From positions 30,446 through 94,445 of IMG/VR virus record IMGVR_UViG_3300045988_127716: 64,000 bases of DNA; one strand, given 5' to 3'. Shown piece by piece: positions 29,037-49,036 of this stretch. The stretch comes from a virus. The translations under genes were made by a program, and so were the position numbers. The stretch's first letter is position 1. Every line of letters begins with the position of its first letter. A model generated the notes under the pieces. The model did not search any database. It was given only the letters and a program-made list of their open reading frames with translations, and was not told the DNA's origin.

Positions 29037-29047
29037 CATTTATATAA

Positions 29048-31091: not shown

Positions 31092-32918
31092 ATGGAAGGA
31101 TTAGATTTAAGTTCACTATTAATTGTAGCAGGAATTTTAGTTGTAGTAATTATTATTACTATCATTGCGGTTTTATCAAGATATAGGAAATGTCCTCCTG
31201 ATAAAATCTTAATAATTTATGGTAAATCTTCTAAGGATAAAGAAGGTAATAAGAAACCTTCTAAGGTTATTCATGGAGGATCTACATTTGTTTGGCCTTA
31301 TTTCCAAGGTTATACCACAATGTCCTTAATTCCAATTCAGTTTAAATGTACTATTGCTGATGCATTATCAAGTCAATATATTAGAGTAACTGTGCCTATT
31401 ACAGCTACAGTTGCTGTAAATTCTGAAGAACCATTTGTTCAAAATGCAGTGAGTAGATTGGCTGGATTGACTGAGGATACTATTATAGAAATGACTAGAG
31501 AAATTATCTATGGCCAATTTAGGGAAATTATTTCTAAATCTTCTATTGAACAGTTAAATGCTGACAGAGATGCTTTTAGAACTAACTGTGAGCAAAGTAT
31601 TGCTAGTGAGTTAAATAAACTAGGATTGAAACTTATCAATATTAACATTGTGGATATTCAAGATGAAGCTGGATATATTGCAAATATTGGTAAGAAAGAA
31701 GCAGCTAAGGCAGTTAATCAAGCTAAAGTAGAAACCGCAGAGGAAGACAAACAAGGAGCAACTAAGAGTGCTGAGATTGAAAAGGATAAAGCAACCCAAG
31801 TAGCAGAGACTGAGAAGAATAGAATTAGTATTTTAGCAGAAACTAAGAAAGAAGAAGCTATTAAGGTTGCAGAAACTGAGAAGAATAGAGTAAGTGCTCT
31901 AGCAGAGATTGAGAAGGAGAAAGCTACTCAAGTAGCAGAAGCTGATAGGATTAGAGAGACCACTGTGGCTGAAACCAAAGCTCAAGAAAGTGCAAGTATT
32001 GTACAATCTAAGAATAATGCAGCTGTAGAAATTGCTAAATCAGATGCAGAAAGGGAATCTAAACAAGTAGAGTTTGATAACTCTAAGGAAATTAAGATTG
32101 CCCAATCTAATTCTGAAATGGAAATTAGAAAAGCGGAAGCTGAGAAGAATGCAATGGTTGGGAAGAATGAGGCAATGAAAGCTGTTGCAACCTCTGAAGG
32201 AGAATTGAAAGTAACTGAAGCAGAAGCTGAGAGAAAAGCTAGAGAGGCTCAAGTAATTGCAGATGCTAAGGTTAAAGAAAGACAAGAGCTTCAACAAAAA
32301 GCTGTAGAAGAAGCTAGAGCACAAAAGGTTGAAACCCAGTTAAAAGCTGAAAAGATTGTTCCTGCAGAAATTGAGAAGGAGAAAGCTCGTCTTAATGCGG
32401 AGGCTTATCAGAATGAAGTAACTGGTAAAGCTAAAGCTGAAGCTGAGGCTATTAAACTCAAAGCAGAGGCAGAAGCAGCTGCAATTAGATTAAAACAAGA
32501 AGCAGAAGCAGCAGGTATTCAGGCTAAACTTGAAGCTGAGGCTGAGGGTAAGAGAAAGTCTGCATTGGCTGAGGCTGAGGGATTTAAGGCAACCATGGAA
32601 GCAGCTAAAGGAAATGAAACCTTAGCAATTCATTACAAGATGGTTACTCAATACAAAGAAATTGCTGGTGAGCAGGTTAAAGCATTTGAGAAGATGAACC
32701 TTGGAAATATCAATATCTTTGATACTGGTGATGGTAAAGGTGCTGGGAAGTTCATGAGAGATATTGTTAACACAGTTGCACCTGCAACTAGTGTGTTATC
32801 CGAAATGCCAGTAATTGGAAAAGCTGTAAAAGCATTAGAGAGTGCTTTGGATAAGAAGAATGAGAGTGGGAATGAAGAGGGAGATGTTAAATCTTCTGCT
32901 TTTGAAGAAGTAAAGTAA
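31092..32918 (+). CDS. SPFH/band-7 flotillin-like protein (YqiK/FloA-like) with long EA-rich coiled coil
   Basis: 608 aa. N-terminal TM (LLIVAGILVVVIIITIIAVL), SPFH-like domain (…KVIHGGSTFVWPYFQGYTTMSLIPIQF…IRVTVPITATVAV…), then about 300 aa of A/E/K-rich repeats (flotillin-type coiled coil). Confidence 0.65.
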   Translation: MEGLDLSSLLIVAGILVVVIIITIIAVLSRYRKCPPDKILIIYGKSSKDKEGNKKPSKVIHGGSTFVWPYFQGYTTMSLIPIQFKCTIADALSSQYIRVTVPITATVAVNSEEPFVQNAVSRLAGLTEDTIIEMTREIIYGQFREIISKSSIEQLNADRDAFRTNCEQSIASELNKLGLKLININIVDIQDEAGYIANIGKKEAAKAVNQAKVETAEEDKQGATKSAEIEKDKATQVAETEKNRISILAETKKEEAIKVAETEKNRVSALAEIEKEKATQVAEADRIRETTVAETKAQESASIVQSKNNAAVEIAKSDAERESKQVEFDNSKEIKIAQSNSEMEIRKAEAEKNAMVGKNEAMKAVATSEGELKVTEAEAERKAREAQVIADAKVKERQELQQKAVEEARAQKVETQLKAEKIVPAEIEKEKARLNAEAYQNEVTGKAKAEAEAIKLKAEAEAAAIRLKQEAEAAGIQAKLEAEAEGKRKSALAEAEGFKATMEAAKGNETLAIHYKMVTQYKEIAGEQVKAFEKMNLGNINIFDTGDGKGAGKFMRDIVNTVAPATSVLSEMPVIGKAVKALESALDKKNESGNEEGDVKSSAFEEVK

Positions 32919-32966: not shown

Positions 32967-33287
32967 ATGAAGCAAGTATTAGTTTTTGTAAAGGCTAAGA
33001 ATTCTTTATTGTTTAGACAATATTCAACTTGTGTTCCTAAGGGAGAATTACTTCCAGATGAAACTCCAGTTAAAGCAGCGATGAGAATTCTTAAAGAAAT
33101 ATATGGATTAAGATTTAAAGAACTACAATTTATAGAGCTAGATAATAATGAAAAGCATGTAAATGTAGGTCTTTCTTTAGATTATTATCCAGAAAGTTAT
33201 ATGGATGAAGATCCAACATTTGTAGATACTAAAGAAGTTTCTTTAAACGGAGAGTGTCCTTTAACAGAAAAATTTCTTACTAAATAA
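32967..33287 (+). CDS. hypothetical protein
   Basis: 106-aa ORF. Confidence 0.4.
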   Translation: MKQVLVFVKAKNSLLFRQYSTCVPKGELLPDETPVKAAMRILKEIYGLRFKELQFIELDNNEKHVNVGLSLDYYPESYMDEDPTFVDTKEVSLNGECPLTEKFLTK

Positions 33288-34267: not shown

Positions 34268-34691
34268 CAATTCTGAGAGGAGAGAATATTTGGAAAATTC
34301 TAAAAGAAATCTTATTGAGAAGTTCAATAAACTACAAAAGGAAATAAAAGGAATTTCTGAAGAACTTAAAGAGGTTAATTCAATGTTAGATGAACTTAAA
34401 TATCCAGAATTTGTATCTAAATATTTAATATTAAGATATAAGAATGGAAATATGGTCTTCGCTAAAATTGGAAGCTCTTTTAAGGTACTAGAATTAGGAT
34501 ACAACGATTATTCTAAAGATTTTTCTATACATGAAAATTTCTTCGAAACTTCCATAATAAAATATGATATTGGAAGTAAGGATATAAACCAATATTGTGT
34601 GGATGAAGAAGAATTTTATGAATCTCTCAGAAGATTTTTATTAGTAAATAATCATCAGGTAACTAAAAAGTTTGAAGGATGGGGAGAATAA
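34227..34691 (+). CDS. hypothetical protein
   Basis: 154-aa ORF, overlapping the previous ORF by 41 nt in a different frame. Confidence 0.4.
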   Translation: MKEESISGISQKTDNSERREYLENSKRNLIEKFNKLQKEIKGISEELKEVNSMLDELKYPEFVSKYLILRYKNGNMVFAKIGSSFKVLELGYNDYSKDFSIHENFFETSIIKYDIGSKDINQYCVDEEEFYESLRRFLLVNNHQVTKKFEGWGE

Positions 34692-35119
34692 ATTTTGATA
34701 AATATTGTTATACAGATGTTTGTGTGGAGAAGTTATTAAAGACTTATAAAGAAAGAGGATATTTAATCATAGCCTTTGACTTTGATGATACTTTAATATC
34801 TTCTGAGCCTGATTATGAATGCCAACTTCCTTTAAGACTATTATCATTGTGCAAAGAATATATTAATTGTAAATTAATCTTATACACTTGTAGATCTAGT
34901 AATAGAGGAGATGGAAGGAATCTTAGAAGAGCAATTGAGACATGTAAGAGTTTAGGAATTGAGCCAGATTATGTTAATGAACATGCTTATGAAGAATATA
35001 AAGGATTAGATGGTAAAGTATTTTATGATATATTCCTTGATGATAAAGCTGGGTTGGGGCAGGCATGTGAAATACTAGGACTGGTTATAAATAAAATATT
35101 GAATAATGAAGATATTTAA
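34679..35119 (+). CDS. HAD-superfamily phosphatase-like protein
   Basis: 146 aa. LIIAFDFDDTL matches HAD motif I (DxDxT). Small cap-less size. Confidence 0.45.
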   Translation: MGRINFDKYCYTDVCVEKLLKTYKERGYLIIAFDFDDTLISSEPDYECQLPLRLLSLCKEYINCKLILYTCRSSNRGDGRNLRRAIETCKSLGIEPDYVNEHAYEEYKGLDGKVFYDIFLDDKAGLGQACEILGLVINKILNNEDI

Positions 35120-35357
35120 AAATGTAATTTGTATTATACTAACATTAATTGTAGTATGTGTAATAGTAGATGTGGTAGGGTATGAGTCTCAAATTAATCC
35201 CAGAGACATGGATATAACTCTTCTAATATCTTCAATGATATATAGCATCTCCATTGGTTTTATAACGGGTCATGTTTTGGGTTTTATAATTGCCATATTA
35301 GGAGGTAAGGATTACATATTTAAGAATAATAAATTTCAAATAATAGATAAAGAATGA
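35106..35357 (+). CDS. small membrane protein
   Basis: 83 aa, two or three TM helices. Confidence 0.35.
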   Translation: MKIFKNVICIILTLIVVCVIVDVVGYESQINPRDMDITLLISSMIYSISIGFITGHVLGFIIAILGGKDYIFKNNKFQIIDKE

Positions 35358-35857
35358 AAGGTGAATTAGTTATTGGAGCAATTGCAGGTGATATTCTGGG
35401 ATCTCCTTATGAAAGAAATGCAGTATATAATCCAGATGTAGATCTTACTGATGAACAAGATTTTACAGATGATTCTATATTAACTATCGCAACTATGGAA
35501 TGTATGCTTGATGATTCTGAGGAATTTGAAAAATATTACATGAAATGGGGAAGAAAATTTATAGGTGAATCTATATGGGGTAAAAATTTCTTTAAATGGT
35601 TACATGATGGAGATTGTAAGGCAATTAATCATTCATGGGGAAATGGATGTTTAATGAGAATTAGTCCTATAGCATACTTTCCTGGAACTGAAGAAGATTG
35701 TAAAAGATTAGCTATTTTATCTTGTCAATATACTCATAATTGTCCAGAGAGTTTCTTAGCCGCAATTGAGTATGTAGGATATTTATATAGATTTGGAACA
35801 TTGTCTAGTTATGGAAGTCTTTGTATTAAATTTGTGGAAAAATGTATGATTTCATAA
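35354..35857 (+). CDS. ADP-ribosylglycohydrolase (ARH/DraG-family)-like protein, short form or N-terminal portion
   Basis: 167 aa. VIGAIAGDILGSPYE matches the N-terminal signature of the ARH family (G.A.GD..G.P.E); FTDDSILT matches the second metal-site motif. Typical ARHs are about 300 aa, so this may be truncated. Confidence 0.5.
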   Translation: MKGELVIGAIAGDILGSPYERNAVYNPDVDLTDEQDFTDDSILTIATMECMLDDSEEFEKYYMKWGRKFIGESIWGKNFFKWLHDGDCKAINHSWGNGCLMRISPIAYFPGTEEDCKRLAILSCQYTHNCPESFLAAIEYVGYLYRFGTLSSYGSLCIKFVEKCMIS

Positions 35858-36286: not shown

Positions 36287-36724
36287 ATGTGTTTAATAGT
36301 ACAATCAAGAGAACCTAAGATAGCAGAGGAAGATATAGTCTGTTATAAATTAGTTAAATATTGGGAAGATGCAGATATTTATGTATCTTCCATGCAGCAC
36401 TTTCCTATAGCCTCTTCTAGAAAAATTATAGGATTTGCACAAAAGGAGGATTCTGAATATGAAATTTATTCTGATATAAGACGAGAATTAGGATATAATA
36501 TTCATGGAGGATTTTTACATACTTTTGCAAACTTAAAAGATGCTAAACACATTTTATCTGAAGTAAGTAATAAATCTGAATACAGAATGTTTAAATGCAT
36601 TATTCCTATTAGTACTACATATTATGAAGGTACAACAAGATTCATAGTTAATGGAAAGTTTATTTCTAATAAAAGTTTTGCATCAAGAGGATTAATTTAT
36701 AAAGAAGAAATACCATGTGTTTAA
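36287..36724 (+). CDS. hypothetical protein, paralogue A (MCLIVQ… family)
   Basis: 145 aa. Its N-terminal region (MCLIVQSREPKIAEEDIVCYKLVKYW…GGFLHTF) is paralogous to the N-terminus of the next ORF (MCLTVLNKNHHIAESDITCYKLFKIK…GGVIHSF). Confidence 0.4.
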   Translation: MCLIVQSREPKIAEEDIVCYKLVKYWEDADIYVSSMQHFPIASSRKIIGFAQKEDSEYEIYSDIRRELGYNIHGGFLHTFANLKDAKHILSEVSNKSEYRMFKCIIPISTTYYEGTTRFIVNGKFISNKSFASRGLIYKEEIPCV

Positions 36725-37518
36725 CAGTATTAAATAAAAATCATCATATAGCCGAGAGTGACATTACTTGCTATAAGTTATTTAAAATAAAAAGTGGAAA
36801 ACTTGTTACTAAATATCAAGAATTTGAGGTGGATCCAACAAAAGAGCTAGTGGCCAAAGGGAGACTTGATATTGTAAAATGTAATGAGGAGTGGGAGATT
36901 AATGGAGGAGTAATTCATTCATTTTCAACTATTCTTGGAGCACTTTTATATAGTGAAAGGAATACAGTTTTATATGAATGTGTTATCCCGAAAGGAGCTA
37001 AATATTATATTGGAAAGTTCTCAGCATCTGGTTCTTATGGATCTGAAAAACTTACTTTAGTAAGAAAAATAGAAGTAACAGAGTATAGAAGCCTGTTGAA
37101 TGAATATCTTTCAGACATTCCTGACAAGTTTGAGAATGTTTATGATATTAAGTCCTATTCTGCAGCTCTTAAGTATTTAAATGAAGAAGCTGCTCCAGAA
37201 ACTGGAGATGAGTGTGTTGATGCTTTCATTAAATTAAGAACAATTGCTAGAGCATGGAATAAATTTATGGGATTTGAGATTAATTTTAAGGATTTTAATC
37301 AATATAGATATGCTCCATATTTTTATTTGGCAGATATACTAAGCAATGACGGTGCCTACTCCGGTTTCGGCTACTGTTGTTCGCACTCCGGCGTGTCTTC
37401 TGCCGTTGCCTATGTCAGCGGCCGGCTTTTATTTGAAAATGATGGAACTGCCAGATTATTTGGGTTTATGTTCTTTGATTTGTACAAAAAGTATTTAATG
37501 CTTGATGGCGACTTCTAA
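36715..37518 (+). CDS. hypothetical protein, paralogue B with C-terminal extension containing a GC-rich patch
   Basis: 267-aa ORF. Nucleotides about 37349-37427 are strikingly GC-rich (…ggtgcctactccggtttcggctactgttgttcgcactccggcgtgtcttctgccgttgcctatgtcagcggccggc…). Confidence 0.4.
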   Translation: MCLTVLNKNHHIAESDITCYKLFKIKSGKLVTKYQEFEVDPTKELVAKGRLDIVKCNEEWEINGGVIHSFSTILGALLYSERNTVLYECVIPKGAKYYIGKFSASGSYGSEKLTLVRKIEVTEYRSLLNEYLSDIPDKFENVYDIKSYSAALKYLNEEAAPETGDECVDAFIKLRTIARAWNKFMGFEINFKDFNQYRYAPYFYLADILSNDGAYSGFGYCCSHSGVSSAVAYVSGRLLFENDGTARLFGFMFFDLYKKYLMLDGDF

Positions 37519-38437: not shown

Positions 38438-39019
38438 ATGAAAAATAAGGAATCAAAAATTAGAGATCAGTATGTAATTGGTGAGTTTACTGATTTTACA
38501 GGAGAGAAAAGAGAGTTTGTTATCTGTGGTATTAGTAAAGAGATTTACTATGAAACTAGAAGAGTGGTTGTAGATGCTCTAGGTTTTCATGAACCAGTTA
38601 AAGAAAAGGATGAGTTTGCTTTTAAGAGCGTAAATTTTGGAATTGCAGTGAGAAATCATGGAGATGTATTTTCTGAAGAAGTAGGAAAGTCTATAGCTAA
38701 ATCTTACGCAATGAATAAACCATTTGAAACAGTATGTGCATATAATAAGTTTACCCTTAATTATGACACTATCAGTGCAATGTTAGATTCATTTGCAAAA
38801 TTCTTCATTGAGAATCCTGCAATGTTTATTCCATCTTATGCTAAACGTAAAGCAGAATATGATAAAAATCCCAACTTGTGGTTAGCTAAGAGAGATTTCC
38901 AAGCACAAAAGGAAGAGAATATTAAGAAGGCTGAACTTGCTCTGAAAGAGGCTAAAGCATCTAAGTTTGGAGGCTTTATCAACGATCCAGAAGAAGCTCC
39001 TAAACTCTTAACTAGGTAA
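38438..39019 (+). CDS. hypothetical protein
   Basis: 193-aa ORF. Confidence 0.4.
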   Translation: MKNKESKIRDQYVIGEFTDFTGEKREFVICGISKEIYYETRRVVVDALGFHEPVKEKDEFAFKSVNFGIAVRNHGDVFSEEVGKSIAKSYAMNKPFETVCAYNKFTLNYDTISAMLDSFAKFFIENPAMFIPSYAKRKAEYDKNPNLWLAKRDFQAQKEENIKKAELALKEAKASKFGGFINDPEEAPKLLTR

Positions 39020-39023
39020 TATA

Positions 39024-39302
39024 ATGTTATATAAAAAAGATCGTAGCGTTATAAAATGTAATTCTAAAGATCTTTTTATATATGAAGCTACTTGTTATAG
39101 AACTATAGATAGATTTACAATCTGTTTAGAAGATACTATCTTTCTTCAAAGTAAAGAGTTTATTAAAGAACAGAATGTTATTCAAGGAGATCTTGTAAAA
39201 TCCCTAACTCTAATTTCAGCTCCCATGAGCTGGATTAGAGGAATGGGTTATGAGGAAGTAGATGATAATTATGGAATTAAAAAGAAATTTATTAAAAAAT
39301 AA
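39024..39302 (+). CDS. hypothetical protein
   Basis: 92-aa ORF. Confidence 0.35.
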   Translation: MLYKKDRSVIKCNSKDLFIYEATCYRTIDRFTICLEDTIFLQSKEFIKEQNVIQGDLVKSLTLISAPMSWIRGMGYEEVDDNYGIKKKFIKK

Positions 39303-39307
39303 TTATT

Positions 39308-39730
39308 ATGAACAACGAAGTATTACAAATGTATCAGAAAATATATTATCTATTCCCTGAAGAAAGAGTTAATCTCTCCAAAATGATTGATCTTAGATTA
39401 TTAAGAATATTATCTTGGGAAGAGTATATTAAGATATTTCCAGATCCAACTATGGGATTACCAAATAGTGTTCTTGAAGATTCTTTTCTTTTAGCTACTT
39501 TTAAGCACAGACAGATGATGAATAAATATTATGAAGCTTTAAATTATACTCCAGATTGGCTTCTTAAAGATGATATTAAATCCTGTCTATATATGAGAGA
39601 TACTCATTTTGAATATGGAGATTTTTATACTATGTATATGTTCTTACTAGCATTTAAAGATAAGAATGATGCTCAATTATATGGAGAAAAGAATAGACAA
39701 CTAGTTAAACAACTTTATTTTATAGATTAA
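39308..39730 (+). CDS. hypothetical protein
   Basis: 140-aa ORF. Confidence 0.4.
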   Translation: MNNEVLQMYQKIYYLFPEERVNLSKMIDLRLLRILSWEEYIKIFPDPTMGLPNSVLEDSFLLATFKHRQMMNKYYEALNYTPDWLLKDDIKSCLYMRDTHFEYGDFYTMYMFLLAFKDKNDAQLYGEKNRQLVKQLYFID

Positions 39731-40320
39731 TGAAAATATTAATTATAGTAGACCCGCAGTATGATTTTCTTGATGAAAATGGGTCTTTATATGTAAAGAA
39801 TGATCATTTAACAGAGTCCATTAGTGATTATGCAATATATCATAAAGACTTTGATAGAGTATTTATTACTATGGATAATCACCCAATTAATCATTGTAGC
39901 TTTATCCAATTTGGAGGACAATTTCCTACTCATTGTGTAGAAGGAAGTTTAGGAGCTTCTTATGATAATAATATATTAAGTATTATAGATCATTATAGAG
40001 ATAAATACACAATAATTTCCAAAGGAGGATGGGCTCATCAAGAGGAATTTGGGGCTTTTGGAAGTACGCATACAATCAGTCTTTTTAAACTTCTTCTATT
40101 ATCTAATAAAGAGGAACACTCAATAGAGGTTTGTGGAGTTGCAGGAGATTATTGTGTAAAGGAAACTATATCTAATTTATTAAATAATTTCAAAGGAATT
40201 ATTAGTAATGAGGATATTTATGTTCTTGAAGATTTGGTAGTATCTATTGATGATGGAACTGCTCTTAAGGAATTTATTAGAGAAAAAGGAATACAAGTAA
40301 TAAATGAATTGCGTAGCTGA
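39730..40320 (+). CDS. pncA: nicotinamidase (PncA; isochorismatase-fold)
   Basis: 196 aa. MKILIIVDPQYDFLDENGSLYV (the D.Q.DF…G.L.V nicotinamidase N-terminus), MDNHPINHCSF and FPTHCVEGSLGA match the PncA metal/active-site signatures (DWHP..H.SF, WP.HCV). Confidence 0.7.
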   Translation: MKILIIVDPQYDFLDENGSLYVKNDHLTESISDYAIYHKDFDRVFITMDNHPINHCSFIQFGGQFPTHCVEGSLGASYDNNILSIIDHYRDKYTIISKGGWAHQEEFGAFGSTHTISLFKLLLLSNKEEHSIEVCGVAGDYCVKETISNLLNNFKGIISNEDIYVLEDLVVSIDDGTALKEFIREKGIQVINELRS

Positions 40321-40639
40321 ATGTGAATATTGCAGAAGTGTTAATGTATGTATAGATAGTCCTAACTGTAATACAACTGGACACTTTTGTACTAAATTAA
40401 ATAGATTAGTTTCTATTAATAAACCTGTTGACGAAGATTGTCCATTTTATTTTAATAAATATAGTTATAGGGAGTTAATCAATTTAAGAGATTCTTTAAT
40501 TTCAGAACTGTACAAAATTAGAGTTAAATGGCGCAAAGGAATTACTGTCACTTTAGAAGATTCACTATTTGCTCAGGATATCGAAGATACAATATACAAT
40601 GTATTTAATAAATTATTAGATAAACAAAATGGAGATTAA
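40304..40639 (+). CDS. Cys-rich small protein (possible zinc-binding)
   Basis: 111 aa with CEYC…C…C…C…C pattern in the first 50 residues. Confidence 0.35.
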   Translation: MNCVAECEYCRSVNVCIDSPNCNTTGHFCTKLNRLVSINKPVDEDCPFYFNKYSYRELINLRDSLISELYKIRVKWRKGITVTLEDSLFAQDIEDTIYNVFNKLLDKQNGD

Positions 40640-41798
40640 ATCAATTTTAGATACAGATCTATATAAATTCTCTGTATCATATGCTTATATGAGATTATTC
40701 CCAGACGCAATTGGAACATTTGAATTTGTAGATAGGAATAAATCTCATTATACAGAAGATGATCTGGATTATATAAATTATGAACTTGCAAATCTTTCTG
40801 CACTTAAATTAAGTGATAATGAAAAAAGATTTATGCAAGATAGATGTTACTTTATTCCAGACTACTATTTTGAATGGTTACAATCATTTAAATTTGATTG
40901 TAGAAATTTATCTATTTCCTTAGATGAAGAAAATCATCTTCATATAAAAGTTACAGATTATTTATATAAAGTAACTCTTTGGGAAATTCCAATTCTTGCA
41001 ATAGTTAGTAGAACCCAGCATAGAGAAGACAAATGGAATATAGATGATTTATATACTAGAACTAGTAATAAAGTACACAACCTTCCATATGAATTCAAAG
41101 TCGCCGATTTCGGAACCAGAAGAAGATTTAATTTTGAAGTTCAGTCAGAAGTGATTGATAAACTATTACATGACTGTCCTCAGAATTTTGTTGGAACATC
41201 CAATTGTTATATAGCTTATCTAAGAGATATTAAAATGATTGGAACTTTTCCTCATGAGTGGGTGATGTTTCATGGTGCTATGTATGGATATGATCAAGCT
41301 AACTATTTAGCTTTAGAGAATTGGGTTAATGTATATGATGGAGAATTAGGAATTGCTTTATCTGATACTTACACATCTGATGTGTTCTTTAGAAATTTCT
41401 CTAAGAAACATGCAAGATTATTTGATGGAGTAAGACAAGATTCTGGAGATCCATTTCAGTTTATTAATAAATGTATTGATAGGTATAGAGAATTAAATGT
41501 AGATCCTCTTACTAAGACTATTGTATTCTCTGATTCATTAGATTTCAAGAAAGCAGTTGATATATTTAATTGCTGTAAGGGAAGGATTAAATGTTCATTT
41601 GGAATTGGAACTAATTTAACTTGCGATTTAGAGGGAGTTAAACCTTCTAATATTGTGATGAAGTTAGTTTCTTGTCAGATGAATAGTAAACAACCTGTGA
41701 AGAAATGTATTAAACTATCTGATGTAGAAGGAAAACATATAGGTGATCCAGAAGAAGTAGCGTTAGCACAAATGATAATAAGTCAACATTATGAGTGA
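40629..41798 (+). CDS. pncB: nicotinate phosphoribosyltransferase (PncB-type, NAPRTase family)
   Basis: 389 aa. N-terminal ILDTDLYKFSVSYAYMRLFP resembles the PncB N-terminus (LLDTDAYKL…). Size fits PncB (about 400 aa) rather than NAMPT (about 480 aa). Adjacent to PncA. Confidence 0.65.
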   Translation: MEIKSILDTDLYKFSVSYAYMRLFPDAIGTFEFVDRNKSHYTEDDLDYINYELANLSALKLSDNEKRFMQDRCYFIPDYYFEWLQSFKFDCRNLSISLDEENHLHIKVTDYLYKVTLWEIPILAIVSRTQHREDKWNIDDLYTRTSNKVHNLPYEFKVADFGTRRRFNFEVQSEVIDKLLHDCPQNFVGTSNCYIAYLRDIKMIGTFPHEWVMFHGAMYGYDQANYLALENWVNVYDGELGIALSDTYTSDVFFRNFSKKHARLFDGVRQDSGDPFQFINKCIDRYRELNVDPLTKTIVFSDSLDFKKAVDIFNCCKGRIKCSFGIGTNLTCDLEGVKPSNIVMKLVSCQMNSKQPVKKCIKLSDVEGKHIGDPEEVALAQMIISQHYE

Positions 41799-42751
41799 AA
41801 TTAGAGAAATTAAAGAATGTTATGAATAGAGATTTAAATTATTCAAAAGTATTTGATACTTTAGTAAATGAAACTAAGAAATATCTTGAAGACCATAATT
41901 TACAAGCTATGGTTCTGGGCATTAGTGGTGGTATTGATTCTACTGTTACTGCTGCGATTTGTTCTGAAGTTAGTAAATGCACTGATATTCCATTGATTGG
42001 AAGAAGTCTTCCAATTAAAAACAAGGATGATGAATTTAATGTATCTAAGTTAGTTGGAGAAGCATTTTGTACTAATTTCCAAGTATGTAATCTTGACGAG
42101 AGTTTATTATACACTAAAGTATTACAAACTATAGAACACTTTGAAGGGGAGGGATCTATATCTAAAATAGCCAATGGAAATATTCAAGCTAGACTTAGGA
42201 TGATTTATCTTTATAATTTAGCATCAACTCATAATGGAATAGTAATATCTACTGATAATCAAACAGAATATCAGTTAGGATTCTGGACTTTACATGGTGA
42301 TGTTGGAGATTTTAACCCTCTATTTGGGTTATGGAAGACTGAGATATATGAGTTAGCTAAACAATTAGAGACTTGGTATGGTACAGAAGCAGAAGGAGCA
42401 GAAGAAGAATATTTTGTAGGGTGCTGTGAAAGAGAAAATGCCATTCATCAATCTATTAAACTCACTCCAACTGATGGACTTGGAATTAGTAATTCCGATT
42501 TAGATCAGATAGGAGCTAAATCTTATTCAGAAGTTGATGATATTTTACAGGAATTTGAGGCTTTTCAATACTTATATCCAAAACAACTTGCAGGAATGAC
42601 TTTAAAGGAAAAGGCTAAAGAGTTTTTGGATAATCAAGAAATGCTTTATATAGAGCCAGAAGTTATCGTTAAGGTAATTGATAGACACGTTAAATCAGAA
42701 TTCAAAAGAAAGAATCTTCCAATTTGTATAACTAGAGATAAGTATGAATAA
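41795..42751 (+). CDS. nadE: NH3-dependent NAD+ synthetase (NadE, PP-loop ATP pyrophosphatase)
   Basis: 318 aa. LGISGGIDSTVTAA is the SGGxDS PP-loop. NadE-like length and layout. Confidence 0.75.
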   Translation: MKLEKLKNVMNRDLNYSKVFDTLVNETKKYLEDHNLQAMVLGISGGIDSTVTAAICSEVSKCTDIPLIGRSLPIKNKDDEFNVSKLVGEAFCTNFQVCNLDESLLYTKVLQTIEHFEGEGSISKIANGNIQARLRMIYLYNLASTHNGIVISTDNQTEYQLGFWTLHGDVGDFNPLFGLWKTEIYELAKQLETWYGTEAEGAEEEYFVGCCERENAIHQSIKLTPTDGLGISNSDLDQIGAKSYSEVDDILQEFEAFQYLYPKQLAGMTLKEKAKEFLDNQEMLYIEPEVIVKVIDRHVKSEFKRKNLPICITRDKYE

Positions 42752-43256
42752 AAAACTTAGATTGTTAATAACAACAAAGTGTCCTAATAATTGTCCTTTA
42801 TGCTGTAATAAAAATTTTGATTTAGATTCTCTTGAAGGATTAGAAGATTTAACTCAATATGATGAAGTGAGTATTACTGGAGGAGAACCTATGTTAATTA
42901 ATGTAGACATCCTCACTAGATTCATAAATCTTTTGAGTAGTATGAAGAAGAAAGTATATTTATACACATCTATCGCAACTATAGATACTATTGATATGGG
43001 GTGCTTTTCTGCACTTAATGGAATTACTCTTACATTACATTCTCAGAAAGATTTGGATAATTTTATTATCTCTAATAAGAGATGTTTAGAAAGAAAGAAT
43101 CCATTAAGAAAAGTTTCATTAATTCTTAAATACTTTAAGGGTATGGAACTTCCTAAAGATATTGATTTATCTATGTGGAAAGTTAAAGAAACAGAGTGGG
43201 TAGAAAACTGCCCACTTCCGGAAGGAGAAGATTTTAAGAAATTTATTTTGTTTTAA
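42744..43256 (+). CDS. small radical-SAM-like protein (organic-radical-activating-enzyme-like: NrdG/QueE-type size)
   Basis: 170 aa. CPNNCPLCC gives Cx3Cx2C; ITGGEPML is the glycine-rich SAM-binding motif. No NrdD or other obvious partner nearby. Confidence 0.45.
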   Translation: MNKKLRLLITTKCPNNCPLCCNKNFDLDSLEGLEDLTQYDEVSITGGEPMLINVDILTRFINLLSSMKKKVYLYTSIATIDTIDMGCFSALNGITLTLHSQKDLDNFIISNKRCLERKNPLRKVSLILKYFKGMELPKDIDLSMWKVKETEWVENCPLPEGEDFKKFILF

Positions 43257-43258
43257 CT

Positions 43259-43555
43259 ATGCACAAAATAGGAGATACAATTTCTTTGTTTGGGAAGGTT
43301 TATATCGTTAAGTCTAAGAGTTCAATTGATGGTTGTTTGGGGTGTGAGGGACTTTTCAATGTTAGTTTTTGTGAGAATATTAGGAAAGTCTTTAATAATG
43401 AGTGTTTCGATTTAAATTGTGTTTATACTCCTTATGAGGCTCCTCCCTCTAAAGAGTCTAGAATAAGTAATTTAAAGATAATTATTAAATATGAAGAAGA
43501 AAAACTACTTGGACTTAAAAAAGAATTAGAACAATTAGAAATGGGAAGTGATTAA
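43259..43555 (+). CDS. hypothetical Cys-containing protein
   Basis: 98-aa ORF; DGCLGCEG…C…C. Confidence 0.35.
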   Translation: MHKIGDTISLFGKVYIVKSKSSIDGCLGCEGLFNVSFCENIRKVFNNECFDLNCVYTPYEAPPSKESRISNLKIIIKYEEEKLLGLKKELEQLEMGSD

Positions 43556-43557
43556 AT

Positions 43558-43929
43558 ATGATTTATTTTATAAGTGGACATAGAGACATAACTAGAGCCG
43601 AATTTGAATATTGGTATGTTCCAATCATTAAAAATGCTGTAGAGCGCGATAAACATGCTAGATTTGTACTGGGAGGGTGTGAAGGTGTAGATTCTATGGC
43701 TTTGGAATATTTAGATGAATTAGCTTTTAATCCTGATAGAGTAACTGTTTATTATAATACTAAGGAAACAAAGTATTTATTTACTTGTAACTCTAAAGGA
43801 TTTGATTCATATGAAGAAGCTGATCAGAACATGACTAAAGATTCAGACATAGATATTGCTTTCATTAGACCTGGCAAAGAAGATTCTTATACAGCTAAGA
43901 ACATTTTAAGAAGATATTTAATGAAATAA
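43558..43929 (+). CDS. hypothetical protein, possible SLOG/DprA-like Rossmann-fold nucleotide-binding domain
   Basis: 123 aa. ARFVLGGCEGVDSMALEY loosely resembles the GGA.G.D.LA glycine motif of the SLOG superfamily. Weak. Confidence 0.25.
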   Translation: MIYFISGHRDITRAEFEYWYVPIIKNAVERDKHARFVLGGCEGVDSMALEYLDELAFNPDRVTVYYNTKETKYLFTCNSKGFDSYEEADQNMTKDSDIDIAFIRPGKEDSYTAKNILRRYLMK

Positions 43930-43930
43930 T

Positions 43931-44554
43931 ATGAAGATAATAGGTAAATATAAAGATTATTATGACTATATCCAGGGAAAATATGGAATAGATGAAGATG
44001 TAATACTTGATAGAAGGAATTTTGTGTGGGATGTACCTGCTACTTATAAATCCTTTAATCCTGACCCGTATGTTTCACACAGGTTCAGGAGTTTAAAGGA
44101 ATATTCTTATGAAGTATTATTACAAACAGGATTTGTTCAATATTTAATAGAAGTTCAACATAATTTAGATGGAGCTAATGTTCCAACTTTAGTAAAGAAG
44201 TTTGAATCAGAAGTAAATATTGGATCTTGCCCTGTGCTTCTAATGCCTCCAGAGATCACTTATTGTATTAGTGGGGCATTTTATAGAGAGTTGAAAGACT
44301 ATAATCTTGATGATATTAAGTCAATTAAAAGAGCCTTTGAAAAAGGAAAAAGTGAACTTCTTAGAAGCACTAAACTTCCAATTTTAAAAGATACTTTTAT
44401 TCCTAAAATTATTCCTGCAGAAGAAGTGTATAATAATATTTATAATTATCTATTATACATGAAAGAGCCCAAAGTAGTAGATACGAGGACTAACAAGCAG
44501 AAAATTGAGGGAAAAGGATTTGATTACAAAGAAAGTTTTAGAAATATAAAATGA
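43931..44554 (+). CDS. hypothetical protein
   Basis: 207-aa ORF inside the NAD cluster. Confidence 0.4.
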   Translation: MKIIGKYKDYYDYIQGKYGIDEDVILDRRNFVWDVPATYKSFNPDPYVSHRFRSLKEYSYEVLLQTGFVQYLIEVQHNLDGANVPTLVKKFESEVNIGSCPVLLMPPEITYCISGAFYRELKDYNLDDIKSIKRAFEKGKSELLRSTKLPILKDTFIPKIIPAEEVYNNIYNYLLYMKEPKVVDTRTNKQKIEGKGFDYKESFRNIK

Positions 44555-45150
44555 AAATAGGGTTATTATTTGGATCATTTGATCCATTTCATATTGGTCA
44601 TTTATCTGTAGTTACTTCTGCATTAAATTCTGGTCAGGTAGAAAAAGTTTGGATTATTCCTGCATTTAAAAGTCCTTGGAAAAATCATTATGCTGATTTC
44701 TATTCTAGATATAGAATGATTTTATCTGCTTGCATAGGGTTGTATGATAAAGTTAGTGTTTATCCAGTTGAGAGTGATCTTATTAAAATTCTAGGAAGAC
44801 CTCCTTATACTATAGATGTAATAGATTTCATTAAGGAAACTTATGAAGATTTTGAGTTCTATATAATTACTTCTACTGAAACAATAGTTGAAATAGAAAA
44901 ATGGCATGAAGGAAAGAGAATCCTAGAAGAAAATAGATTCATAGTAGTAGGCAGAGAAGGGTTTCCTATAAGTCCAGATATTAAAAAAGTAAAACCTTTA
45001 GAATGGATAGATGCATTTGGGTTTGAAGGAATATCTATATCTTCAACCAAAATCAGAAAATGGATAAGTAATAAATATATTCCAATTCCTTATATCAATG
45101 CAGATCAATATGATCTAATTAAACAAAATCATCTTTATGAAAAACTTTAG
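44551..45150 (+). CDS. nadD: nicotinate/nicotinamide mononucleotide adenylyltransferase (NadD-like)
   Basis: 199 aa. IGLLFGSFDPFHIGHL matches the (H/T)xGH nucleotidyltransferase motif in NadD context (GG.FDP.H.GHL). Confidence 0.75.
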   Translation: MKIGLLFGSFDPFHIGHLSVVTSALNSGQVEKVWIIPAFKSPWKNHYADFYSRYRMILSACIGLYDKVSVYPVESDLIKILGRPPYTIDVIDFIKETYEDFEFYIITSTETIVEIEKWHEGKRILEENRFIVVGREGFPISPDIKKVKPLEWIDAFGFEGISISSTKIRKWISNKYIPIPYINADQYDLIKQNHLYEKL

Positions 45151-45634
45151 TGTAGAAGTAGAAGGAAAAACTTATTGGATTTCTAGATCCATTGCAGTAG
45201 CTGGATTTATATTCTCCAAACTTGGAAATAACTGGTATGTACTAGCGAATAAAAGAGGAGAAGGTGCTCCTGATTATGTAGGATGCTGGAATTGTCCTTG
45301 TGGATATTTAGATTATGATGAAACCTTATCAGAGGCCTGCTCAAGAGAAATCTTTGAAGAAACAGGAGTGTCTATAAGAGAGGATGAACTAAACTTTGAA
45401 GAGATTAATGATTCTTTGGAAAATAGACAAAATGTTACAATTAGATTTACTAAATTTGATGATACAGGTAAACTGATTAATCAAGGACTAACATCTAGAT
45501 ATTCGGAAGATCAGGAAGTAGATGATATTAAATGGATCAGGGTTAAGAGTATTGATAACTATGATTGGGCATTTAATCATAAAGAGATTATTAAGGATTT
45601 AGCAAAATTTTATTTAAATTTTAAATATGAATAG
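45137..45634 (+). CDS. Nudix hydrolase
   Basis: 165 aa. GYLDYDETLSEACSREIFEETGV is a perfect Nudix box (Gx5Ex7REUxEExGU). Confidence 0.8.
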   Translation: MKNFSVEVEGKTYWISRSIAVAGFIFSKLGNNWYVLANKRGEGAPDYVGCWNCPCGYLDYDETLSEACSREIFEETGVSIREDELNFEEINDSLENRQNVTIRFTKFDDTGKLINQGLTSRYSEDQEVDDIKWIRVKSIDNYDWAFNHKEIIKDLAKFYLNFKYE

Positions 45635-46205
45635 AAGAGAGCAGACTATAAGCAATGAAGTAGCACAGTTAATGATAGATCAAATTAGTAGAGAGTTATA
45701 TAATCATAATGTTTATAGAACTTATGCTAATTTTTATTATCAAAGAGGATTGTGTAAATTATTTGATTATTATCAATTAAGAGCTTTTGAAGAGTATAAT
45801 CATCATAGTTGGTTGTTTGATAGATTAACTCAATGTGGTGTAGAGTTTGAATATCCAAAAGTGGATGCAATTAAATCTGAACATGTTATTACTAAATTAG
45901 AAGAATCCTTCCCTAATACAGTAAGTTTAGAGATTGAGACTACTGGATGGATTAATGGTATTGTTAAGCAATGTATTAAAGAAGGAGATTATACTACTGA
46001 ACAGTGGTTGAAAGAAGTAATGTTGGGAGAACAGCATGAAGAGGAGAATATCTCTAGACATATACAAGCCATTACTGAAGATGATACTGATTGGTTAACT
46101 AAACAAGATACTATTCTTAGTTATTATAATAATAGAGAGTATGCTACTGATACTCAGAGAGATATTATAAATGCTGAGAAGGTTGATGATGAGGATGATG
46201 ATTAA
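45627..46205 (+). CDS. ferritin-like di-iron protein
   Basis: 192 aa. …YNHNVYRTYANFYY… and …RAFEEYNHHSWLFDRL… resemble ferritin/bacterioferritin ferroxidase-site helices (E…ExxH). Confidence 0.45.
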   Translation: MNRREQTISNEVAQLMIDQISRELYNHNVYRTYANFYYQRGLCKLFDYYQLRAFEEYNHHSWLFDRLTQCGVEFEYPKVDAIKSEHVITKLEESFPNTVSLEIETTGWINGIVKQCIKEGDYTTEQWLKEVMLGEQHEEENISRHIQAITEDDTDWLTKQDTILSYYNNREYATDTQRDIINAEKVDDEDDD

Positions 46206-46218: not shown

Positions 46219-46575
46219 ATGAAGAAATTTAAATTAAAGAGAAGAAAATTTAGGCCTAACAAAGTATATAGTTCAGAAAAACTTCTTAAATGTATCATAG
46301 ATGCTGAACTTAGACCATATGGTAAAACATTAGAAGATATTAATACAGAAGAAAATGGAATTATCAATGGCCTTAAGTGGTTTGAATATTATACCTTTAA
46401 AACTCCTTCTCAGGAAAGAGTTTGGGATGAGTATTGTAATAAACTAGTTAGAAAGCATTGGTTGCCTTGGTATATATCTAAAAGAGAAGCAGACAGACAT
46501 TTATCTATGATTAGATTAGGTTATGGACTTAAATCTGAATATATTACTTCAAAGTTAGAAAAGAATGAGAATTAG
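46219..46575 (+). CDS. hypothetical protein
   Basis: 118-aa ORF. Confidence 0.4.
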   Translation: MKKFKLKRRKFRPNKVYSSEKLLKCIIDAELRPYGKTLEDINTEENGIINGLKWFEYYTFKTPSQERVWDEYCNKLVRKHWLPWYISKREADRHLSMIRLGYGLKSEYITSKLEKNEN

Positions 46576-47395
46576 AATTATTCCAGATCTTCATGGATCT
46601 GATTGGTGGAAAGAAGAAATTAAGGATATTGATGAGTTAGATCATTGTATCTTCTTAGGTGATTATGTTGATGATTGGGATGCTAAGAATGAAGTGATAT
46701 TTAAAAACTTAGAAGAAATAATAAGTTTCAAAAAAGAATATATGGATAAGGTTACTCTTTTATATGGTAATCATGAATTTAATTACATTCATCCATATAC
46801 TGGATATTGTAGTGGTTTCAGACCTACTATGAAAGATTCCTTAGGTATTCTTCTCTTTGAAAATAAAAACTTATTTCAAATTTGTAAGTTAATAAATATT
46901 TCATTACCTTTGTATTCTTCTCCTCAACAGAAATTATTATTTTCTCATGCTGGATTTTCTAAGAATTGGATAAAGGATAATTACTATTGGATAAATGAAG
47001 AACATTGGAAGACAATTAGTGAAGAGGATTGGAAGAAGTTTAAAGACTTTCAGTTAGATAATTTAGAAGAAGTAATTAATAATTCATTCGATTCTTATAC
47101 TGTATTAGATAAAGTTATGTCTATTGGCAGATTAAGAGGAGGTTGCTCTCCAGAAGGTGGACCACTGTGGGCAGATATGAGAGAAACTTTCAATAGGTAT
47201 CTTTTAGGTTATAGACAATTTGTTGGGCATACTCCTTCAATGAAAGTTACTACTGGATCTTATCCTGATAGATCTCCTGAAAATTCTTCAATTACATTTT
47301 GTGATTGCGGAAGTAAAAGAGTAGATATAACTTTAGATATAACTAATTTTAATATAGCTCTAATAGTTAATAATGAAAGTACAATATTATGTTAA
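46565..47395 (+). CDS. calcineurin-like metallophosphatase (PPP-family Ser/Thr phosphatase-like)
   Basis: 276 aa. IIPDLHG, FLGDYVDDWD, LYGNHEF match PPP motifs GDxHG / GDxVDRG / GNHE. Confidence 0.65.
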   Translation: MRIRIIPDLHGSDWWKEEIKDIDELDHCIFLGDYVDDWDAKNEVIFKNLEEIISFKKEYMDKVTLLYGNHEFNYIHPYTGYCSGFRPTMKDSLGILLFENKNLFQICKLINISLPLYSSPQQKLLFSHAGFSKNWIKDNYYWINEEHWKTISEEDWKKFKDFQLDNLEEVINNSFDSYTVLDKVMSIGRLRGGCSPEGGPLWADMRETFNRYLLGYRQFVGHTPSMKVTTGSYPDRSPENSSITFCDCGSKRVDITLDITNFNIALIVNNESTILC

Positions 47396-48051
47396 TAGGT
47401 ATTAGTGGCAAGATCAAATCTGGTAAAGATACTATAGCTGATATATTTATGGCAGATTTTTGGAAGAATGGTTGTGGAGGAAGATTTTATACTATTGAGA
47501 GACATTCTTTCGCGGATAAATTAAAATCTATAGTTGCAGCTATAGTTGGGTGTCATAGAGAGGATTTAGATTCTCAAGAATTTAAATCTAAAGCAATTCC
47601 TGATTTTACCAAGATTTCTCAGAATGGAATCATTACTCATGTAGTTCCTAGTGATAAGATCTTTTACAATGATGTTTTTAAGGAATATAGTATAGTTACT
47701 TACAGAGAAGCTCTACAATTCTTCGGAACCAAATTCAGAAATGAATATGGAGAGAATTTCTGGGTGAACTTATTACTTAATTCCCTACCTTCTACATCAA
47801 AGGAGGAGATAATACTAATTACTGATGTAAGGTATTTAAATGAAGCAGAAGCTATTAAATCTAGAGGAGGAATTTTAATAAGAGTTAATAGACCTCACAA
47901 TGAATCTCCTAAGGATATTTCTAATCACCCTTCCGAAACAGGCCTTGATAATTATAATAATTTTGATTACATCATTGAGAATGATGGGTCTCTAGAAGAT
48001 TTAGAGGGGAAAGTTAAATTAATCTATTCACATTTAAAAACTAAACATTAA
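47389..48051 (+). CDS. deoxynucleoside monophosphate kinase-like P-loop kinase (T4 gp1-like)
   Basis: 220 aa. MLIGISGKIKSGKDTIADIF closely parallels the T4 dNMP kinase N-terminus (MKLIFLSGVKRSGKDTTADFI). Confidence 0.6.
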   Translation: MLIGISGKIKSGKDTIADIFMADFWKNGCGGRFYTIERHSFADKLKSIVAAIVGCHREDLDSQEFKSKAIPDFTKISQNGIITHVVPSDKIFYNDVFKEYSIVTYREALQFFGTKFRNEYGENFWVNLLLNSLPSTSKEEIILITDVRYLNEAEAIKSRGGILIRVNRPHNESPKDISNHPSETGLDNYNNFDYIIENDGSLEDLEGKVKLIYSHLKTKH

Positions 48052-48250: not shown

Positions 48251-48434
48251 GGAATATTTAAAAGCTAGGAATTTATTAGATATTCTAATGAATCTTACTG
48301 ATGAAGAAGGAGAAAGTGAAATAATTCTAATAGATAATAGATCTAAAAAATATTTTCTTATAAGTGGAGTAGAACTATCAAGGGATTTAATAACTGATGA
48401 TAAAACTCTTATAATAAACATTTCAGAAGAGTGA
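48240..48434 (+). CDS. hypothetical protein
   Basis: 64-aa ORF. The minus ORF 48221-48421 is judged antisense. Confidence 0.3.
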   Translation: MGTREYLKARNLLDILMNLTDEEGESEIILIDNRSKKYFLISGVELSRDLITDDKTLIINISEE

Positions 48435-49036
48435 TATTAAAATTTAAGAAAGAGGAAAATCGGAAGATTTATTTTACTTCAGATTTGCACTTTTGTCATA
48501 AGAATATATTATCCTATGATAATAGACCTTATGATACTATTGAGGAGATGAACAGGGATATAGTAGAAACTTGGAATAATATAGTTTCCGAGAACGATAT
48601 TATATTCCTGTTAGGGGATATTACCTTGTATGAAAAAAGTAACACAGTATTGAGTTTATTAAAAGAATTAAAAGGTGATATTTATTTTATACAGGGTAAT
48701 CATGATACAGATAAAGCAGTGAACTTTTATGTGGAGAATAAGGTATTTAAAAAAGTTTGTTCTCCTCTGCAAGTCATTGAATATAGTTTAGATAATACTG
48801 ATGAAGGAAAGTTTACCTTTCAACTTTGTCATTATCCTATGTTAGATTGGTGGAAGAAACAAAAAGGTGGATTTCAGATATTTGGTCATACTCATGGTAA
48901 TTTAAAAGATCATGATGTTGCCCAAATTGAAATCAGTTGGCCTGTTTGGTATCGTCCTATAGAGATTGATGAGATATTAGTTTATTTAACAAAGCAACAA
49001 CAATCATTGAAAACACATTATCATTTTAATGATTGA
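48431..49036 (+). CDS. metallophosphoesterase
   Basis: 201 aa. YFTSDLHFCH, LLGDIT, QGNHD, GHTH motifs of the calcineurin-like phosphoesterase fold. Confidence 0.6.
   Translation: MILKFKKEENRKIYFTSDLHFCHKNILSYDNRPYDTIEEMNRDIVETWNNIVSENDIIFLLGDITLYEKSNTVLSLLKELKGDIYFIQGNHDTDKAVNFYVENKVFKKVCSPLQVIEYSLDNTDEGKFTFQLCHYPMLDWWKKQKGGFQIFGHTHGNLKDHDVAQIEISWPVWYRPIEIDEILVYLTKQQQSLKTHYHFND

Follow-up and report, generated by a model that had tools for sequence, protein, structure and literature searches.

Why should a bacteriophage encode the enzymes needed to turn nicotinamide into nicotinamide adenine dinucleotide (NAD+)? The question is raised by a stretch of viral DNA of 64,000 nucleotides (nt), here termed the window (IMG/VR record IMGVR_UViG_3300045988_127716, positions 30,446 to 94,445), in which ten open reading frames (ORFs) on the plus strand, located at window positions 39730-45634, overlap or lie at most 2 nt apart. 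Five of their products are assigned to PncA, PncB, NadE, NadD and the Nudix hydrolases (Table 1). NAD+ depletion ranks among the most common results when bacteria defend themselves against phages, and experimental proof exists for three pathways by which phages rebuild NAD+. We consider it probable, at roughly 0.7, that the cluster serves the phage as a nicotinamide salvage module rebuilding NAD+ in the infected cell, with a benefit that most likely arises under depletion by NADases.

Enzymes leading from nicotinamide to NAD+

The original prediction had ascribed to the phage a complete set of enzymes for the route from nicotinamide through nicotinate, nicotinate mononucleotide (NaMN) and nicotinate adenine dinucleotide (NaAD) to NAD+. 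The motifs that it quoted (DNHPINHCSF, PTHCVEG, SGGIDS, HxGH and a perfect Nudix box) were found on the plus strand where it had placed them, and the predicted set is complete. Profile hidden Markov model searches, which it had named as a check, gave a divided picture, in that PncB and NadE passed curated equivalog cut-offs and PncA and NadD stayed just below theirs; the latter two assignments were rescued by the conservation of their active sites and by their ranking against solved structures.

PncB is of full length and possesses both Pfam domains, NAPRTase_N (PF17767, 99 bits) and NAPRTase (PF04095, 200 bits). It scored 423.1 bits against TIGR01514 (cut-off 269.55) and 433.4 bits against NF003704 (cut-off 379), and its match to the Nampt family of PHROG was weak (1.3e-14). 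NadE reached 132.7 bits against TIGR00552 (cut-off 63.65) and 129.6 bits against Pfam NAD_synthase, the sole Pfam domain in its 318 amino acids (aa); a glutaminase (CN-hydrolase) domain is absent, and the PP-loop SGGIDS occupies residues 44-49. The start of nadE was set at GTG 41795 (318 aa); gene callers on identical contigs take an ATG at approximately 41822 (309 aa).

The weakest call of the set is PncA, which is, as far as its sequence allows the assignment, a divergent nicotinamidase. It scored 24.4 bits against the Pfam family Isochorismatase (PF00857; gathering cut-off 27), and its sole NCBIfam match was to the PncA model NF008623 with 37.6 bits (1.9e-9; cut-off 174). All nine matches below E = 0.005 in a single-sequence search of the PDB were nicotinamidases, among them those of Leishmania (3r2j, 2.5e-20), P. 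horikoshii (1ilw/1im5), yeast (Pnc1, 2h0r) and M. tuberculosis (3pl1). An alignment of ten orthologs taken from related phage loci (27-55% identity) showed no variation in the catalytic triad (D8, K98, C142) or in the metal ligands (D49, H51, H68); purifying selection acts on the catalytic residues of the enzymes of the whole route. In P. horikoshii PncA, the counterpart of D8 is D10, and D49/H51/H68 align with D52/H54/H71 of 1ilw/1im5. The metal ligands are part of the motifs DNHP (residues 49-52) and THCV (residues 67-70); DxH and HCV motifs set nicotinamidases apart from other isochorismatase-like hydrolases. When a profile of the orthologs was compared with the PDB, the top seven entries were characterized nicotinamidases (E 1.5e-41 to 4e-30), and the next ones, named isochorismatase or cysteine hydrolase, began at approximately 1e-21, about eight orders of magnitude behind.

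NadD exceeded the cut-off of Pfam CTP_transf_like (58.8 versus 21 bits). Its 11 best NCBIfam matches are all NadD models, each under its cut-off (TIGR00482, 99.6 bits versus 112.45; NF000840, 102.5 bits versus 150). All 18 matches in the PDB are NadD proteins, with that of S. aureus (2h29, 2.9e-16) ranking best and that of B. subtilis (1kam) second, and neither NadM nor NadR appeared among the PDB matches or the top NCBIfam matches. The motifs GSFDPFHIGH (residues 8-17, with HIGH at 14-17) and SISSTKIR (residues 162-169) are present, and we assign the predicted protein to the NadD-type adenylyltransferases.

This assignment bears on the order of the last two steps. In a Francisella-like sequence of reactions, the NadE-like protein would amidate NaMN to nicotinamide mononucleotide (NMN), which the NadD-like protein would then adenylate. 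Single-domain NadE homologs preferring NaMN, as well as adenylyltransferases of dual specificity, were reportedly described by Sorci and colleagues in 2009, substrate preference is not fixed by sequence alone, and NadD scored under its equivalog cut-offs. Nevertheless, the reversed order is judged to be very improbable, given that the best matches of the adenylyltransferase in the PDB and in NCBIfam are all NaMN-preferring NadD proteins rather than NadM or NadR and that NadE passes the NadE equivalog-domain model. As the net conversion is the same in either order, the conclusion on the module would not change.

The Nudix hydrolase (Pfam NUDIX, 51.4 bits) contains a perfect GX5EX7REUXEEXGU box, GYLDYDETLSEACSREIFEETGV, at residues 56-78, the key positions of which are invariant in ten phage orthologs. 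A profile of these orthologs (n=10) placed 2fml first in the PDB (1.5e-14), followed by NrtR (3gz8/3gz5, approximately 1e-10), a regulator that binds and responds to ADP-ribose (ADPR), both with modest E-values; the Nudix domain of Francisella NadM-Nudix (2qjt) came next with 1.1e-8, on a par with several unrelated Nudix families (NudJ, plant NUDT1). Near the C-terminus of the phage proteins, an AF(D/N)H motif aligns with 2fml and with NrtR 3gz8. Classical ADPR pyrophosphatases typically carry a proline approximately 16 residues past the Nudix box, a residue that the phage protein lacks at this position. Taken together, we regard the enzyme with moderate confidence as a probable ADPR pyrophosphatase.

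It could instead stand outside the NAD+ module, as a sanitizer of the nucleotide pool or an RNA-decapping enzyme encoded in the same nucleotide-metabolism region. The nearest deposited relatives (43-45% identity) are found in the Prevotella Lak megaphages, and in Lak-B6 (locus L018, 7562-8513) the homolog (45% identity) directly follows an ORF that by eye resembles a dUTPase, and the ±8 kb examined on either side contained none of the NAD genes. NudJ and MutT-like proteins are among the single-sequence PDB matches, and the genes that come next in the window encode ferritin-like, phosphatase and dNMP kinase proteins. In contrast, 15 of the 17 related phage loci, including those with a reduced pncA-pncB-nudix form, have a homolog downstream of pncB, at a distance of 1.4-6.3 kb from the start of that gene; the ortholog profile ranks 2fml and NrtR on top, with NadM-Nudix among the next and the AF(D/N)H motif in common; and an NMN or NaMN adenylyltransferase fused or adjacent to a Nudix domain is a known arrangement (NadM-Nudix, KVP40). 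A function outside the module is considered unlikely.

Table 1. The ten ORFs of the cluster, with positions given in window coordinates (PRPP, phosphoribosyl pyrophosphate)
Product	Position	Strand	Predicted reaction or feature
PncA, nicotinamidase, 196 aa	39730..40320	+	nicotinamide -> nicotinate + NH3
Cys-rich ORF, 111 aa	40304..40639	+	no family match
PncB, type-I nicotinate phosphoribosyltransferase, 389 aa	40629..41798	+	nicotinate + PRPP -> NaMN
NadE, single-domain ammonia-type NAD+ synthetase, 318 aa	41795..42751	+	NaAD + ATP + NH3 -> NAD+
Small radical-SAM 'organic radical activating enzyme'-like protein, 170 aa	42744..43256	+	CX3CX2C motif, homolog domains
Lineage-specific ORF, 98 aa	43259..43555	+	no family match
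Minimal SLOG-fold protein, YpsA/DprA/LOG-like, 123 aa	43558..43929	+	SLOG Rossmannoid fold
phrog_4243 ORF, 207 aa	43931..44554	+	19 unannotated homologs
NadD-type nicotinate-mononucleotide adenylyltransferase, 199 aa	44551..45150	+	NaMN + ATP -> NaAD
Nudix hydrolase, probable ADPR pyrophosphatase, 165 aa	45137..45634	+	ADPR -> AMP + ribose-5-phosphate

Phage origin and conservation of the gene arrangement

The window encodes a tail lysozyme, a GH108 endolysin, HNH and GIY-YIG endonucleases, PolA, helicases and a PDDEXK nuclease, to which an RNase H identified by eye from its translation can be added, as well as 27 tRNAs and a transfer-messenger RNA (tmRNA). The GC content is uniform at 25-33%, and nearly all of the coding sequence is located on a single strand. 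Viral contigs in IMG/VR that match the window measure 101-185 kb; PncB is 99% identical on one contig of 185 kb and 87-88% identical on three more. Identical sets of cluster proteins are present on contigs of 48-183 kb from several human-gut metagenome samples, the longest contigs with identical genes measure 183-186 kb, and a contig of ERR414428 (PRJEB5224) is 100% identical over the cluster. A megablast search of the cluster against the phages in GenBank yielded no match at the DNA level, so that protein-level searches were needed. The 43 closest cellular relatives of PncB (44-52% identity) belong to the Bacteroidales without exception. The phage stems from the human gut and probably has a host among the Bacteroidales, and the genes are probably of Bacteroidales origin.

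The same relatives would fit the view that the region is merely bacterial DNA, be it a mis-binned host contig or a passively carried host operon, without any function for a phage. This is extremely improbable in the light of the phage hallmark genes, the tRNAs and the tmRNA, and the occurrence of identical clusters on gut contigs and on IMG/VR viral contigs. Moreover, the GC content contrasts with the 47-62% of the bacterial loci (two excepted), and the cluster is absent from the bacterial loci examined. In the Bacteroidales loci with the nearest PncB, pncB stands alone or together with a divergently transcribed pncA, and nadE is nearby in one only. Therefore, the arrangement of the five genes on one strand is specific to phages, as opposed to an operon captured from a host.

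To survey the module, all cluster proteins were compared by tblastn with 17 related phage loci. Of these, 16 have pncA in the company of pncB, and 15 have a homolog of the Nudix gene downstream of pncB; within 10 kb of pncB, nadE was found in 11 loci and nadD in ten. The order pncA-pncB-nadE-nadD-nudix occurs in MT835470, L002-L005 and L008-L012 (10-11 of the 17 loci). Given that it recurs at protein identities of only 25-57%, this arrangement is not due to chance. The phages with the conserved order are represented by large gut and rumen contigs, on which identities go down to about 30-45%. Reduced forms consist of pncA-pncB-nudix (L013, L014, L016 and L017), pncB-nudix (L015) or pncA-pncB (L006), and a gene for an ADP-ribosylglycohydrolase (ARH) is located between pncA and pncB in L007-L009, L011 and L012. 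The conserved core is well defined and comprises PncA and PncB almost always and the Nudix hydrolase usually, with NadD and NadE being optional. Across deposited phages, PncA-like genes are present in five records only, all of them uncultured, PncB in 13 and NadE in 44.

A further cluster is located at positions 4196-12669 of the 735-kb phage LR756501.1 (L019), where pncB, a 170-aa ORF, nadE and, further along, pncA were detected (tblastn for pncA, pncB and nadE). By eye, it also includes ORFs for a TonB-dependent-receptor-like protein of 718 aa, a HAD-like protein, a PnuC-like membrane protein, a NadR-like protein and a lipoprotein. A survey of gut jumbo phages credits LR756501 with nadD only (PMC11662467).

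In the window, the cluster belongs to a longer run of plus-strand ORFs (38438-46205) with overlaps or gaps of at most 5 nt. Since the NAD genes abut or overlap and share their strand with genes of replication and nucleotide metabolism, they are probably co-transcribed. Scans for promoters (114 promoter-like sites versus 109 expected, with Bacteroidales-type promoters outside the models of the scan) and for terminators (three found versus four expected) were at background level and are therefore uninformative on operon structure. Rfam indicated no NAD-related riboswitch near the cluster, and in PADLOC the cluster matched only a generic Nudix entry and, very weakly, a radical-SAM one.

Closely related strains differ within the module. 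Comparison of the window with L002, L020, L022 and L024 revealed two sharply bounded patches, 42880-43480 and 44600-45130, in which the nucleotide identity drops to 54-80% against a background of 92-100%. One of them lies within the radical-SAM and 98-aa ORFs and the other in the core of nadD, which indicates mosaic recombination within the module. Co-circulating strains carry two nadD alleles that are approximately 50% identical in protein, with the motifs intact in both. In addition, L002 (11163-12949), L020 and L024 carry a three-gene insertion between pncB and nadE, made up of a 355-aa AAA+ ATPase and ORFs that each measure about 120 aa; it is absent from the window (at approximately 41798), L021-L023 and L025.

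Proposed function and relation to known NAD+ pathways

On the basis of the predicted activities, PncA would deamidate nicotinamide, the base freed by cleavage of NAD+, to nicotinate, which PncB would join with PRPP to yield NaMN. NadD would convert NaMN and ATP to NaAD, and the ammonia-type NadE would amidate NaAD to NAD+. The Nudix hydrolase would split ADPR, the other cleavage product, into AMP and ribose-5-phosphate, both of which host enzymes could return to ATP and PRPP. In this way, NAD+ may be kept available for phage replication in the face of depletion by NADase effectors of the host, such as those of the TIR, SIR2 and SEFIR types; where a host has no such defences, NAD+ would be raised by the module as well. 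The near-constant pairing of PncA with PncB suggests that nicotinamide, the NADase product, and not only nicotinate serves as the input. By analogy with the pathways discussed below, a role in anti-defence is plausible, although the sequence does not separate it from a general boost of NAD+.

Such a general boost is the essence of the most serious alternative, in which the cluster would have an auxiliary metabolic function, supplying NAD+ to phage or host consumers (ligases, ADP-ribosyltransferases, RNA 2'-phosphotransferase) or to a host that lacks salvage, with no specific link to NADases. In the survey of Chen et al. (Microbiome 2024, PMC11662467), phage NAD+ clusters are read in this sense, with phage and host pathways complementing each other. 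The NAD+ reconstitution pathway NARP2 lifts NAD+ even without a defence system (10.1101/2024.02.11.579819), and the cluster described here is situated amid genes of replication and nucleotide metabolism (dNMP kinase, PolA, helicases, phosphatases). Furthermore, infection by the jumbo phage PA5oct induces the pncA-pncB1-nadE operon of its host, and the passage describing this induction gives no defence context (PMC7318152); the induction is at the same time a precedent for the proposed salvage module. On the other hand, PncA is found nearly always with PncB and the ADPR-clade Nudix hydrolase, and in several loci with an ADP-ribosylglycohydrolase, which argues for recycling of cleavage products over uptake of precursors. 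All phage NAD+ synthesis pathways tested so far counter NADase defences. For these reasons, a function confined to general metabolism appears to be the less probable explanation by a clear distance from even odds, and the metabolic and counter-defence roles are not mutually exclusive.

Several points weigh against a salvage module that pays off under NADase depletion. They comprise the sub-threshold scores of PncA and NadD, the missing proline of the Nudix hydrolase and the NAD-gene-free surroundings of its Lak relatives, and the lack of information from the promoter and terminator scans. The route consumes PRPP and also ATP at up to three steps and is dearer than NARP1; together with the rise of NAD+ caused by a NARP2-type pathway without defence, this cost means that a general metabolic role fits equally well. 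In addition, removal of nicotinamide could relieve the product inhibition of NADases.

The original prediction had presented the four-enzyme route as a solution different from the established ones. This holds with respect to NARP1, NARP2 and NARP3, to none of which the cluster belongs, but a pncB-nadD-nadE cluster and a phage pncA had already been reported (PMC11662467). NARP1 (Adps and Namat) and NARP2 (Nampt and Nmnat) defeat Thoeris, DSR, SIR2-HerA and SEFIR (Osterman et al., 10.1101/2024.02.11.579819), and NARP3, a further phage pathway of NAD+ resynthesis, consists of PnuC and NadR (Sci Adv 2026, PMC13464706). PncA, PncB and NadE are not mentioned in the papers on NARP1-3, and the phage enzymes of NAD+ synthesis listed in a survey by the Aravind laboratory are NadV, NadM and NadR only.

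A functional parallel is NARP2, known as Nampt/NadV plus Nmnat from Vibrio phage KVP40, which likewise makes NAD+ from nicotinamide, PRPP and ATP by means of ordinary salvage enzymes and whose adenylyltransferase in KVP40 is associated with a Nudix domain, comparable to the Nudix hydrolase in the window. However, NARP2 proceeds in two steps via NMN and the cluster would proceed in four via nicotinate, NaMN and NaAD; Nampt is absent here, the equivalog model having identified PncB as such, and the adenylyltransferase belongs to the NadD and not the NadM type. Tests of NARP2 have covered Thoeris, DSR and further systems, whereas the module of the window is a prediction from sequence. Like the proposed module, NARP1 restores NAD+ from NADase products, but it does so by a novel chemistry in which ADPR is pyrophosphorylated and nicotinamide is attached directly. 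In the window, ADPR would at most be broken down by the Nudix hydrolase, and no Prs-family (PF14572), Namat or Nampt-family protein is encoded by the ten cluster ORFs. NARP3 also resynthesizes NAD+ from a salvageable precursor, yet it imports nicotinamide riboside and employs a bifunctional NadR, and neither the PnuC transporter nor NadR is found in the cluster; counterparts of both, recognized by eye, join pncA, pncB and nadE in LR756501. With the bacterial pyridine nucleotide cycle and Preiss-Handler salvage, the cluster shares all four enzyme families and the predicted chemistry. In the Bacteroidales loci examined, however, these genes are dispersed, at most with pncA and pncB adjacent and divergent, in contrast to their one-strand assembly with a Nudix gene in the phage.

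Chen et al. attributed a complete salvage or Preiss-Handler pathway to 174 jumbo phages of the gut, among them a clade infecting Bacteroidota (e.g., Kuafu_71) with pncB-nadD-nadE clusters, and framed the role as metabolic with neither a biochemical nor a defence test (PMC11662467). The window agrees with that cluster in combining pncB, nadD and nadE in a large gut phage linked to Bacteroidota. It differs in that PncA and the ADPR-clade Nudix hydrolase are integral and syntenic here, while the published pathway is defined from nicotinate, and in that those phages exceed 200 kb by definition, compared with contigs of approximately 183-186 kb, which may or may not be complete, in the present case. 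Our literature search found no later paper testing the PncA-PncB-NadD-NadE route in a phage. The cluster is hence not new in kind; it is a well-resolved case of a route already described from sequence, working like NARP2, of which it would be a functional analogue that uses deamidated intermediates and is built from Bacteroidales-type genes.

A specialist is unlikely to be surprised by such a cassette, which is still a ready-made candidate for a fourth NAD+ reconstitution pathway and represents, in clean, complete and recurring form, a route so far only listed in a metagenomic survey. The source phage is widespread in human gut samples, and the phage-defence biology of its likely Bacteroidales hosts is poorly studied. 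Should the route overcome NADase defences, Bacteroidales phages of the gut would join those known to reconstitute NAD+, and a five-gene cassette would be at hand for the engineering of therapeutic phages. More tentatively, and with somewhat more doubt than belief, we consider that the cassette may constitute a fourth, mechanistically distinct pathway ('NARP4') directed by large gut and rumen Bacteroidales phages against NADase immunity. If so, the deamidated route would avoid NMN and remove free nicotinamide, could work in hosts lacking Nampt, and might resist host counter-measures against the NMN route; the sharp swaps of nadD alleles between near-identical strains could then reflect an arms race on the pathway.

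Interspersed and neighbouring ORFs

The suggestion that the radical-SAM, SLOG-like and hypothetical ORFs between the NAD genes might belong to the module did not survive the comparison of gene order, because in other phages they do not travel with the NAD genes. The interspersed ORFs are therefore rejected as members and, judged by comparative synteny, probably lie outside the conserved module. The Cys-rich 111-aa ORF is present only in the closest relatives L002-L005 among the compared loci and is probably lineage-specific and outside the pathway, and the 98-aa ORF was detected only in L002 and near-identical strains; neither matched Pfam, NCBIfam, PHROG or PADLOC.

The radical-SAM ORF contains its CX3CX2C motif as CPNNCPLC at residues 13-20. 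It has no Pfam match above threshold itself, but its homologs carry PF13353 and PF04055 and bear the JGI name 'organic radical activating enzyme'. Its position in L007-L012 is 4-5 kb upstream of pncB, next to PolA and to an ORF that is ThyX-like by eye; it was not found in the examined parts of L001, L003, L006 and L013-L017. The family has 111 members without annotation, on contigs as long as 460 kb, and elsewhere it is located beside ThyA/DHFR or near an RNA ligase and KptA rather than NAD synthesis genes.

The SLOG ORF possesses the SLOG Rossmannoid fold, as confirmed structurally, and is a putative binder or processor of nucleotides or ADPR derivatives, which we regard as a neighbour rather than a core part. 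Iyer et al. predict the processing of ADPR derivatives by viral YpsA-like SLOG proteins (PMC9503650), and on this ground a role related to NAD is possible for it, though not one tied to this pathway. The 207-aa ORF (phrog_4243) has just 19 homologs, all unannotated, and its structure model is poor (predicted local distance difference test score, 56); near one distant homolog, no NAD genes were present in the neighbourhood.

Upstream of the cluster, an ADP-ribosylglycohydrolase gene (35354..35857, plus strand), a neighbour with a link to NAD/ADPR, is truncated, with the N-terminal 147 aa fused to a foreign tail; the match to PF03747 (59.7 bits) covers profile positions 3-167 of 287 only. The ortholog in L002 (region 1943-5240 compared) is of full length, with 255 aa and a GGDTDT motif, and is matched by residues 1-147 of the window protein. 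In L002, the ARH gene is followed by five paralogous 'MCL...' ORFs; since the tail in the window resembles the end of the last of these, a deletion of approximately 2.9 kb seems to have occurred in the window strain, and the truncated enzyme is probably inactive there. The MCL family consists of proteins of 130-270 aa that start with MCL and have CYK...CIIPKG motifs in common; two copies are present in the window (36287-36724 and 36715-37518) and at least six in L002 (2710-5240 and 5678-6115).

Past the Nudix gene, the window encodes a ferritin-like protein (45627-46205), two calcineurin-like metallophosphatases (46565-47395 and 48431-49036) and a dNMP kinase (47389-48051). In the distant loci L001 and L008-L012, the NAD module again has the dNMP kinase and the second phosphatase nearby, and in L007 it has the phosphatase. 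A kinship of the flanking metallophosphatases with the phage phosphatase that counters aRES was considered and dismissed, as that enzyme is a Macro-domain protein.

The tRNA array extends over window positions 14024-29304 and includes the tmRNA (17397-17909), for which ARAGORN predicts the tag peptide VNIKKGLY and which reaches 51.5 bits against Rfam RF00023 (gathering score 47). HNH endonuclease ORFs are located inside the array (24659-25144 and 26065-26634), together with two large ORFs without Pfam match, 18712-20544 (610 aa) and 22003-23553 (516 aa). An unusual cargo for a phage is an SPFH/Band 7-flotillin-like protein of 608 aa (31092-32918) with a long coiled region rich in Ala, Glu and Lys. 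A HAD-like ORF of 146 aa (34679-35119) with the motif FDFDDT has a counterpart of 26% identity inside the NAD cluster of LR756501, and an ORF of 106 aa (32967-33287) contains, by eye, a degenerate Nudix box, GELLPDETPVKAAMRILKEIYGL.

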